NCBI RefSeq assembly: GCF_006345805.1
Contig: NW_021826648.1
Coordinates: forward strand, 1 to 12,123
Direction of reading: 5' to 3'
Source: Octopus sinensis
Taxonomy: Eukaryota
Length of the DNA: 12,123 nt
A program made the position numbers and the translations under genes. Below, piece after piece: positions 313-12,123 of the stretch (its first letter is position 1; the number at the start of each line of letters is the position of its first letter). Below the pieces are notes generated by a model that saw nothing but the letters and a program-made list of their open reading frames with translations, ran no database searches and was not told the origin of the DNA.

Positions 313-359
313 AGAGGGCAATTATACATACATGCCAGAGAGCATTATACATACATGCC
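313..359. repeat. Two-copy 23-24 bp tandem duplication at the element end
   Basis: AGAGGGCAATTATACATACATGCC (313-336) is followed by AGAGAGCATTATACATACATGCC (337-359). Confidence 0.9.
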
Positions 360-450
360 ACACGCTAAGAGGGACAATTAGTCATTTCTACCAAAAATAT
401 TACTAATCCCACCGAATGCAATTTTTCAAAATAAGACATTTAAAAAATAT

Positions 451-498
451 AGACCTGTATCACAGTGATTTCATACTTACGTATTCATCAGCAGGCCT
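451..498 (-). ncRNA. Minimal type I hammerhead ribozyme (Penelope-like element / retrozyme type)
   Basis: The minus strand reads AGGCCUG-CUGAUGA-AUAC-GUAA-GUAU-GAAA-UCAC-U-GUGA-U-A-CAGGUCU. Helix I is AGGCCUG (498-492) with CAGGUCU (457-451), 7 bp including one G-U. The catalytic core is CUGAUGA (491-485). Helix II is AUAC/GUAU capped by a GUAA (GNRA) tetraloop, followed by GAAA (472-469). Helix III is the palindrome AUCAC-U-GUGAU (469-459). The NUH triplet is AUA, so cleavage is predicted between 458 and 457. Confidence 0.85.
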
Positions 499-791
499 GA
501 AGTATCATAATAAACGACCCAGCCCCGCTTAAGCCGATCAGCTAACTGTCAACATCAACGAAGCACATGGGTGAGTTTATATATATACATCCTGTAAATG
601 GCATACTTTTACGAATTGCATTTCGGGAGAGGAAAAGTTTTTTCGGAATAAAAATTTAGCAATTAAGGACAAACTACTTAATAAGGAAAACTTAACAAAA
701 TTGTCAGGTAGATAGCGTGAAAACCTCATAAGAGAATAAATTTCGAAATAATTATTTCTTTATTGAACATATTAATTTATATATAGAGGGC

Positions 792-793
<2 letters not shown>

Positions 794-835
<42 letters not shown>

Positions 836-7453: not shown

Positions 7454-7552
7454 GTTTCTGTAGAATTTGCTGTTCCTGCTATTCTTTTTATAGTCGCAAC
7501 GTTCCTGGAGCTTGTGGTTGCTGTAGTTTTTTATAGTCACTATTGTCGTTAT

Positions 7553-8001
7553 TCTCTCTTATACTCTTTTTCTTGTTTCAGTCCTTTGACTGCGGCCATG
7601 CTGGAGCACCGCCTTTTAGTCGAGCAAATTGACCCCAGGACTTATTGTTTGTAAGCCTAGTACTTATTCTATCGGTCTTTTTTGCCGAACCAGTAAGTTA
7701 CGGGGCCATAAACACACCAACATCGGTTGTCAAGCGATGTAGGGGGACAAACACACACAAACACACACACGCACACGCGCACACACACACACACACACAC
7801 ACACCACACATATATATATACATACAAACATATATACGACGGGATTCTTTCAGTCTCCGTCTACCAAATCCACTCGCAAGGCTTTGGTCGGCCCGAGGCT
7901 ATAGTAGAAGACACTTATCCAAGGTGCCACACAGTGAGACTGAACCCGGAACCATGTGGTTAGTAAGCAAGCTACTTACCACACATCCACTCTTGCGCCT
8001 A
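7553..8001 (-). mobile_element. tRNA-derived SINE, family B (Octopus-type), full-length ~450 bp with an internal (TG)n tract
   Basis: The minus-strand head TAGGCGCAAGAGTGGATGTGTGGTAAG...GGTTCAGTCTC carries Pol III A- and B-box-like motifs. The body runs to about 7835, the microsatellite spans 7750-7835, and the 3' part 7553-7750 ends in AAGAGT-type short repeats. The head and body are about 90% identical to 11956-12110, and the 3' part is homologous to 10607-10846. Confidence 0.9.
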
Positions 8002-9950: not shown

Positions 9951-10470
9951 TCGCATGCCAGTCAGGGATACAAACAGGGAGATAGAGAAGAGATGTAATG
10001 GCGAGTGCCTGTGTGTCAAAAGAAAGTGAGTATTGTCATATCTCTCCCTCCCTTTGCTGCTATAAGATATTTTCGTTTGGTCTTCAAACAGTTGAGACAT
10101 TAAGAACAAAAAGACGAAATCTCTGAGATAAGACATTTCTGAACACTACCAACAATGAAACAGAATACATCACGAAATATCAGGTATTGTATTTCTTGTC
10201 AGTGTGCTTGCGAGTGCGTACGTTTGTGTGTATGTGTGTGTGTGTGTGGTCTGGTCACTAGTTCAGCATGTCTACAGGGTAAATGTCGCATCTGATATCT
10301 CTGCACATGGAAATGTGTCAGCGAGAAGAATGCAAACTTTCAAAGCAAGTCTGCACACCTAACCTCTAATCACGTGTAAACAAGGCTGCTGGCACCTGGT
10401 CGTTTAATTTCCTAAAAATGGTGTACAATGTCCTCCTCAAATCACACTGTTCTGTCTTAAAAATAGGAAA

Positions 10471-10553
10471 GCGTCTTGTATTGTAGCCTGGGGTCAACCA
10501 ATGCCTTGTGAGTGGATTTAGTAGATGGAAACTGAAAGAAGCCTGTCATATAT
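10471..10553 (+). mobile_element. Internal fragment of SINE family B
   Basis: GCGTCTTGTATTGTAGCCTGGGGTCAACCAATGCCTTGTGAGTGGATTTAGTAGATGGAAACTGAAAGAAGCCTGTC aligns with 12043-12107 and with the reverse complement of 7838-7916. Confidence 0.88.
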
Positions 10554-10606
10554 CTGTGTGTATGAGTGTAACAATTACATCATCCACTAATACACAAAAG
10601 CTGATA

Positions 10607-11881: not shown

Positions 11882-11930
11882 GTTGTTGTTGTAATTATTA
11901 TTATTGTTATTGTTATTATCATTATTATTA
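11800..11930. repeat. (ATT)n microsatellite
   Basis: Near-perfect ATT run at 11802-11880, then a GTT/ATT mix. Confidence 0.95.
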
Positions 11931-11954
11931 AGGCGGCAAACTGGCAGAATCGTT
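11930..11954 (+). mobile_element. 25-nt 5' stub of SINE family A
   Basis: AAGGCGGCAAACTGGCAGAATCGTT has an A-box-like TGGCAGAATCG. It corresponds to the 5' end of the minus-strand element at 1908-1892 (12/17 identity) and to the family 5' end as recalled. Confidence 0.6.
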
Positions 11955-11955
11955 G

Positions 11956-12120
11956 TAGGCGCAGGAGTGGCTGTGTGATAAGTAGCTTGCTTACCAACCA
12001 CATGGTTCCGGGTTCAGTCCCACTGCGTGGCAACTTGGGTAGGTGTCTTCTACCGACCAAAGCCTTGTGAGTGGATTTGGTAAATGAAAACTGAAAGAAG
12101 CCCGACGTATATATATATAT
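11956..12120 (+). mobile_element. SINE family B, head and body (may continue beyond the window)
   Basis: A-box-like TGGCTGTGTGA (11968-11978) and B-box-like GGTTCAGTCCC (12011-12021). By hand alignment it differs from the reverse complement of 7835-8001 by about 16 substitutions and one 13-nt deletion. Confidence 0.92.
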
Positions 12121-12123
12121 GGA

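Follow-up and report, generated by a model that had tools for sequence, protein, structure and literature searches.

The small Octopus sinensis contig NW_021826648.1, analysed at its full length of 12,123 nt (the window), raises the question of whether a hammerhead-like sequence at 451–498 of its minus strand is a real ribozyme, and what kind of element carries and moves it. An initial annotation had described an intact minimal hammerhead with a palindromic helix III and linked it to Penelope-like elements (PLEs). The contig is simple-repeat-rich animal DNA, and no PLE open reading frame (ORF) was found in it.

The hammerhead and its variants

The CUGANGA, GAAA and UH elements of the hammerhead core were present in type I order on the minus strand. 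The complete core, the 7-bp helix I, the 4-bp helix II and the GNRA loop that had been annotated were all confirmed between 498 and 451, as follows:

451–498, minus strand: type I hammerhead ribozyme, based on core order and covariation
498–492 paired with 457–451, minus strand: helix I, 7 bp with one G-U
491–485 and 472–469, minus strand: core CUGAUGA and core GAAA
484–473, minus strand: helix II, with pairs A-U, U-A, A-U and C-G and the loop GUAA
459–469, minus strand: imperfect 11-nt palindrome, helix III including 15.1 and 16.1, with U464 central; inter-copy pairing predicted
457–458, minus strand: predicted cut site 458/457 after the AUA triplet, with A17 at 458; position from sequence

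Evidence from the window was modest and suggestive. The core pattern with at most one mismatch gave one match against 0.34 expected (58 of 200 shuffles reached one), and the hammerhead folded with a z of −2.2, with 4 of 200 shuffles equally good. The search with hammerhead models that the initial annotation had recommended gave no match to the Rfam hammerhead families at E up to 1 for the window and up to 10 for 400–560. In the genome (G000), the exact pattern of core and helix II matched 651 times and patterns of sister families another 1,199 and 20 times, in partly overlapping sets; the reversed controls gave 0. Since 651 exact matches stood against none in the control and helices I and II carried compensatory changes, a chance origin of the hammerhead was excluded. 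Judged by these comparisons, 451–498 holds a real type I hammerhead sequence, for which cleavage is predicted.

The compensatory changes were seen in an 18-row alignment of variants, in which 6 of 7 pairs in helix I and 3 of 4 in helix II had changed on both sides, so that the covariation anticipated for these two helices was borne out. Paired cells made up 90.8%, compared with 75% in shuffles, which related sequences can beat by kinship, and with 23–39% when partners were slid. Helix III was invariant and gave no covariation information, its invariance being partly imposed by the search patterns. The alignment included families D and E, which had only helix III in common with family A, and it thus mixes homologous and possibly analogous ribozymes.

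The A-U pair closing helix II and the AUA triplet had been taken for an atypical, lineage-specific variant. Among 43 distinct variants, position 10.1–11.1 was G-C in 17, U.U in 13, A-U in 10 and another combination in 3, while position 17 was A in 33, C in 8 and U in 2; both features are family-level drift and no novelties. Family B has the U.U closing pair, and family C a G-C with an AUC triplet. The helix II loop was not always GNRA either, with AGAG or AGAA in a sister subfamily. Sequence comparison suggests that family A, to which the window copy belongs, derives from a form with a longer helix II, whose base has been lost together with 6–8 nt of the helix I 5′ strand, and the loss of the basal helix II would explain the A-U closing pair. 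AUA also occurs in a natural viroid hammerhead and was the slowest of four triplets tested there (PMC1636495), and a U.U at the base of helix II is found in an axolotl retrozyme variant, as in some variants here. Hammerheads of Hydra-clade PLEs in the same genome showed the same drift at 10.1–11.1, A at position 17 and a palindromic helix III.

Conservation of the core relative to its flanks gave a divided answer. In five family representatives, 11 of 11 core and 8 of 9 helix III positions were invariant, compared with 196 of 439 elsewhere, a contrast biased upward because three of the four other families had been found by core patterns. In 23 copies of family C, found mainly by their downstream sequence, the core was not significantly better kept (7 of 253 core positions deviating vs 318 of 6731, P 0.17). 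Such unremarkable decay is expected if inserted copies drift neutrally and only source lineages are selected.

A 1-nt loop on helix III, which had been called sterically implausible, was indeed disallowed by the energy model. The palindrome at 459–469 formed an inter-copy duplex of −10.1 kcal/mol and no monomer hairpin, and in the best monomer fold the core paired with half of the palindrome, leaving helix III a probability of about 3%. Two ribozymes co-folded to an exact double hammerhead at −31.1 kcal/mol, compared with −19.4 kcal/mol for two monomer hammerheads. The modelling agrees with the suggested action as a dimer: a lone copy is predicted to misfold, and the ribozyme is predicted to cleave in pairs as a double hammerhead. 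The palindromic helix III had been rightly recognised (9 nt); the term minimal did not fit, since published minimal forms lack helix III. Palindromic helices III and dimer action have been described for PLE hammerheads (Cervera and de la Pena 2014, PMC4209133; PMC6765202). The newt satellite and axolotl HHR_Amex1 double hammerheads also have an unstable palindromic helix III and predicted dimer activity. In the octopus ribozymes, unlike these, the palindrome is longer and mismatched at its centre in the dimer, and the triplet is AUA or AUC.

A second hammerhead-like core (CUGAUGA, GAAA, a 4-nt palindrome and UC) was located at 2015–2045 of the minus strand. Its helices I and II do not form, and it is possibly a decayed PLE ribozyme.

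The 476-bp repeat unit

The hammerhead was part of an ORF-less 476-bp repeat, of which the window copy spans about 314–798. The features of this copy and its surroundings are:

314–798, minus strand: one family A retrozyme monomer, terminally redundant by about 15 nt; array units match it at 97% identity, most differences being 1-nt indels
313–360, plus strand: short tandem duplication with a period of about 20–23, typical of family A and absent from A2, B, C and F
30–313, no strand: likely target site, rich in (TA)n and bordering the element at its 3′ (E1) end
794–833, no strand: 5′-junction (TA)n tract, which shares a short TA-rich microhomology with the element where the two overlap
314–319, minus strand: E1 terminus, the 3′ end of the window insertion, followed by (TA)n
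659–670, minus strand: E2 site, internal in the window copy; two-armed insertions have it as the 3′ end of their second arm, and on the monomer it lies 128 nt downstream of E1

The 420 bases around the hammerhead had 118 genomic matches at 96–97% identity (39 of 1,204 candidates scored). Genomic units of 476 bp were arranged head to tail, with array periods of 458–503 bp. The longest ATG frame in the monomer encoded 42 amino acids and the GC content was 33%, below the 50% limit for retrozymes. An LTR architecture was absent; the elements consisted of pure head-to-tail monomers with inverted arms. Family B, about 73% identical to A, was discovered beside A copies independently of the core pattern and made up the majority of the first 100 listed among the 1,199 pattern matches. 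Families A2, C and F showed 67–70% identity in stretches spanning most of the monomer.

Cut-to-cut monomers folded as circles reached a z of −7.0 for family A and −6.4 for family B (60 shuffles each). Their structure was conserved across families at 67–73% identity, and among eight monomers both partners had changed in 17 of 97 consensus pairs, while 22 had some mismatch. The monomer RNA is predicted from this modelling to fold as a highly self-paired circle.

Variants of the family were also found in contigs of runs X1, X2, X4 and X5 from two organisms (A and B) and are thus not confined to one. Contigs of unit length plus about 31 nt occurred in X1 (510 nt) and X4 (508 nt plus adapter), runs only guessed to be RNA; they fit a closed path through the assembly graph, as expected equally from tandem DNA and from a circle.

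ORF-less tandem units of low GC, each with a type I hammerhead, are known as non-LTR retrozymes. These have been described as 150–450 bp repeats that are expressed as circles and for whose mobilisation PLEs are considered strong candidates (Cervera and de la Pena 2020, PMC7229834). A preprint has since argued for a PLE origin of retrozymes from their co-occurrence with PLEs and from homology to pseudo-LTRs (pLTRs) of PLEs in Xenopus (Li et al. 2026, 10.64898/2026.07.22.740005), and reports in vitro cleavage for one of nine Xenopus retrozyme dimers. The published metazoan retrozymes of coral, mussel and axolotl (PMC7229834, 10.64898/2026.07.22.740005) share with the octopus repeat a self-paired predicted circle in which the ribozyme is free to form, and a dispersal as monomers to multimers. 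The octopus units (476–503 bp) are longer than the range of the 2020 paper and within that of the preprint (51–972 bp). They further differ in their 9-nt palindromic helix III, in family A lacking a recognisable canonical loop 1–loop 2 contact, and in their strict two-ended (TA)n insertions, for which we found no description in these sources; the circles of the octopus family are predicted ones. The retrozyme class is already known and the ribozyme itself is ordinary. The words 'octopus', 'cephalopod', 'mollus' and 'tail' are absent from the main text of the preprint. We found no publication on this family or on two-ended retrozyme insertions, with Repbase and subscription journals outside the scope of the search, and the family may already be catalogued.

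Insertion ends and proposed mode of mobilisation

The 3′ ends of the family's insertions fell at two fixed sites and ran on into (TA)n: E1 lies about 143 nt past the cut site, E2 about 271 nt. The 5′ ends varied. The survey of these ends covered 40 regions from the first 100 of the 651 listed places, with those already sampled skipped, and comprised 41 insertions. Two arms joined head to head were present in 26 of them, and each of the 26 had one end at E1 and the opposite end at E2 (P 1.5e-8 under a 50:50 draw); the same site at both ends was never observed (0/26). Because subfamily A2 lacks a 20-bp duplication, three of the 26 and one single-armed copy had been scored 'x460' by the script; they were assigned to E1 from their flanks. 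The 15 single-armed insertions ended at E1 (nine), E2 (five) or neither (one). (TA)n flanked 38 of the 41 insertions on both sides, and any target-site duplication longer than 4 bp was hidden by these flanks. The best-scoring loci of the homology search had the same end pattern.

Haplotypes were shared among the units of one insertion. In family A, shared minor variants per pair numbered 3.12 within a locus (99 pairs) vs 0.46 between loci (1,854 pairs), and in family B 3.5 (309 pairs, partly counted twice through the overlap of L033 and L036) vs 0.44 (1,425 pairs). By eye, the haplotypes of both arms matched at 14 of 14 loci, three of which carried the majority type alone. Precise twin priming on one circle, in which either arm would stop at the start site of the other, was rejected, with arm 5′ ends lying near E1 in 3 of 52 and near E2 in 3 of 52 cases (hand count), about the level of chance. 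In four of the 26 two-armed insertions (L148, L150, L184 and the second insertion of L167), the arms stopped at the same monomer coordinate, by eye at short palindromes, which suggests annealing or fold-back at self-complementary sites. The window copy, L165, L171 and L174 were almost exactly one monomer long, a length that TA-rich microhomology at E1 and E2 may have caused.

The 5′ truncation, inverted 5′ arm, tail at one end and microsatellite target of these insertions are all marks of PLEs, whose insertions are described as 5′-truncated, partly tandem, with an inverted 5′ copy and a tail of 30–40 bp that is often confined to one end (Craig et al. 2021, PMC8557442). Hydra- and Neptune-clade PLEs share with the retrozyme the (TA)n target and the palindromic helix III as well (PMC8557442, PMC4209133); unlike them, the retrozyme has no RT or GIY-YIG ORF, and no clear homology to their pLTRs was seen. 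Its 128-nt tail also exceeds the published 30–40 bp, compared with 75–121 nt in Hydra-clade copies and about 40 nt in Neptune copies of this genome. Purified Poseidon protein of the green anole initiates reverse transcription internally, at two positions by which the tail is defined, and both target strands are extended; the Poseidon hammerhead required the protein, and insertion in vitro could do without the hammerhead (Frangieh et al. 2024, PMC11167929). As proposed for the retrozyme, these two start sites lie downstream of the hammerhead and set the genomic ends, the target is AT-rich and both strands can be extended. Unlike the retrozyme, with its same-site ends in 0/26, the anole element is autonomous, with a short tail and no strand preference of its start sites in vitro.

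The strict E1/E2 ends suggest that a PLE enzyme using two start sites mobilises the element. We consider it very probable that the 476-bp repeat is a non-LTR retrozyme mobilised by a (TA)n-targeting PLE via a self-cleaved unit RNA, with cleavage, ligation to a circle and cDNA priming as inferred steps. Double hammerheads in the transcripts of tandem arrays would cut these into unit-length RNA, which may be ligated into the self-paired circle, and a PLE enzyme would reverse-transcribe this RNA into new (TA)n sites. Two cDNAs, one per cut target strand, would be primed at E1 and E2 of one template and then be joined head to head through microhomology. The window copy, with a single arm, one monomer and one ribozyme, is consequently a likely dead end that could cleave only in trans or weakly. 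With somewhat less assurance, though still on balance, we favour a narrower account of the ends, in which cis-signals for PLE integration are all that the ORF-less RNA carries, and a single PLE ribonucleoprotein cleaves both (TA)n strands and initiates two cDNAs on the same template, of which one must begin at E1 and the other at E2.

The mechanism of retrozyme mobilisation is open in print, with PLEs named from co-occurrence and pLTR homology (PMC7229834, 10.64898/2026.07.22.740005). The main point of interest is that an ORF-less retrozyme copies the two-start-site signature of PLEs at its ends, under a strict one-of-each rule. If true, this would be a direct genomic footprint of a PLE enzyme mobilising animal retrozymes, the tail here being three to four times as long as those published, and the 476-nt unit would be a natural substrate for asking why PLE tails sit at one end only.

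The same element and PLE driver could also act on an uncleaved linear multimer RNA instead of a circle, with a hammerhead that is weak, protein-assisted or used for another step. An A-U or U.U at 10.1–11.1 is expected to slow hammerhead cleavage, as this reading would have it. The insertion ends, 143 and 271 nt off the cut site, are in keeping with it too, as are the slowing expected from AUA (PMC1636495) and the finding that RNA left unprocessed serves as the main substrate of the Poseidon enzyme (PMC11167929). The L067 array contained subsets with private variants common to 3, 4 and 4 of its 11 units, which indicates a multimer template or later duplication and is unexpected from a single monomer circle. 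Most arrays, such as L066 and L072, were uniform inside, however, and the cut-to-cut structure kept over families at 67–73% identity speaks against an uncleaved template, as does the invariance of core and helix III in the five representatives, upward bias included. We regard a linear multimer as possible but unlikely, and keep the self-cleaved unit RNA as the preferred template.

Penelope-like elements of the genome

The initial annotation was right to link the ribozyme to PLEs. A place in a PLE terminal repeat was not supported, the ribozyme sitting in an ORF-less tandem repeat. The monomer could still be a solo or tandemised pLTR of an unfound autonomous PLE, its copies being 5′-truncated insertions of that PLE. 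The insertion hallmarks are all PLE-like, Xenopus retrozymes are homologous to PLE pLTRs (10.64898/2026.07.22.740005), and PLE diversity was sampled in part, with 150 of 2,463 and 126 of 25,915 candidates scored. Yet arrays of at least 10 pure monomers without an ORF exist, and the monomer was never an ORF's own terminal repeat in 133 loci searched with six PLE proteins, seven of which held PLE fragments. Among 29 further loci, it flanked an RT and GIY-YIG ORF in none, and two lay near decayed Hydra ORFs. A pattern search for the longer-helix-II form of the ribozyme beside an ORF gave two matches, neither adjoining a detected ORF. The Hydra and Neptune loci sampled and an old degenerate Poseidon family were rejected as parents, each carrying different hammerheads. 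A pLTR origin therefore seems improbable to us, and the repeat is better read as a retrozyme that a PLE mobilises.

As to which PLE, intact Hydra-clade ORFs of 778–1,124 aa carried the RW, DKT and CxCX5C motifs (CxCX5C in five of six checked) and no CCHH-type pair within GIY-YIG, according to the motif definitions of PMC8557442. At all six distinct loci with both ends in view, Hydra-clade insertions showed an E1+E2-like pairing and ended in (TA)n, about 37–44 nt past their own hammerhead on one side and 112–158 nt on the other, with tails of 75–121 nt. Several of these ends lay near the motif CTTAATTG, as at the retrozyme E2. Homology between retrozyme and Hydra tails was rejected, with no sequence similarity in 30 comparisons (z at most 1.1).

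A young Neptune family had 781-aa ORFs that were 95–97% identical and matched RVT_1 and GIY-YIG; the two end sites of this family, both in (TA)n, were separated by about 40 nt. Its 3′ end resembled 57 nt of family A (z 4–5) and not B or C, with a z of up to 2.8 for F; the resemblance is AT-rich and out of register with the start sites. The Poseidon pLTR hammerheads were followed by a (TA)n end in one of six cases seen, at 68 nt.

Two junctions connected the retrozyme with PLEs physically. In L149, a Neptune arm ending at its tail site was joined to a retrozyme arm ending at E1 via 132 nt of 99.2% identical Neptune UTR, and in L288 a decayed Hydra ORF was directly joined to a family C copy. Both fit template switching. 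Junctions of a similar kind in L012 and L070 go back to a LINE that inserted later: this APE and RT element (L070:3262–8548 and L012:1–1236), with an intact ORF2 of 1,138 aa, sits at the TA-rich E1 site of one retrozyme copy and is joined to the 5′ end of another. Since a later insertion accompanied by deletion can also produce chimeras such as L149 and L288, they do not single out one clade as the driver. A Hydra-clade and a Neptune-clade driver are equally plausible, neither of them reaching an even chance, and another PLE is rather improbable. Young intact ORFs of both clades occur in the same genome, so that partner and start sites are open to a direct in vitro test.

Satellite DNA amplified by DNA-level recombination, with a fossil ribozyme, would account for the tandem arrays and the haplotypes common within them, and unequal crossover has been proposed for retrozyme arrays (10.64898/2026.07.22.740005), but this is largely refuted as an explanation of dispersal, and highly improbable as a whole, by scattered insertions whose 3′ ends are fixed and 5′ ends variable, with arms joined head to head and (TA)n on the flanks, by the one haplotype of inverted arms and by the compensatory changes in the ribozyme helices.

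Further hammerhead-like motifs and repeats were recorded alongside. L124–L143 (for example L126:3446–5971, minus strand, and L132:3498–6338, plus strand) contained many Hydra-clade PLE families with intact ORFs, and the genome held 2,463 first-look candidates. These PLEs had long-helix-II hammerheads, 6-nt palindromes and the tails of 75–121 nt given above, vs the published 30–40 bp (PMC8557442). The young Neptune families at L246:3532–5874 (plus strand) and L149:240–2590 (minus strand) had hammerhead-like motifs in their pLTRs with a U3-A8 core (UUGAUAA, UUGAAAA) and 4-nt palindromes; one of the two had 25,915 first-look candidates. Hammerhead-like motifs with C for U4 (CCGAAGA, CCGAUGA) were found in the UTRs of the 778-aa ORF in L136 and L142 and at L228:139 and 3477, and the two ends of the L228 element lay in (TA)n, 37 and 108 nt past the cut. 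Family G (L137:1170–1800) is an ORF-less, two-armed (TA)n repeat of about 510 bp with a long-helix-II hammerhead and no BLAST homology to families A–F. Another hammerhead-bearing repeat, in L062, L134, L149, L177, L181 and L245, had (TA)n ends about 97 and 181–190 nt past the cut. The window itself contained dispersed SINE-like repeats at about 7500–8000, 10400–10600, 11900–12123 and 1700–1990, common to up to 79, 42, 67 and 28 sampled loci, respectively, and 7904–8001 and 11956–12053 were inverted copies of each other.
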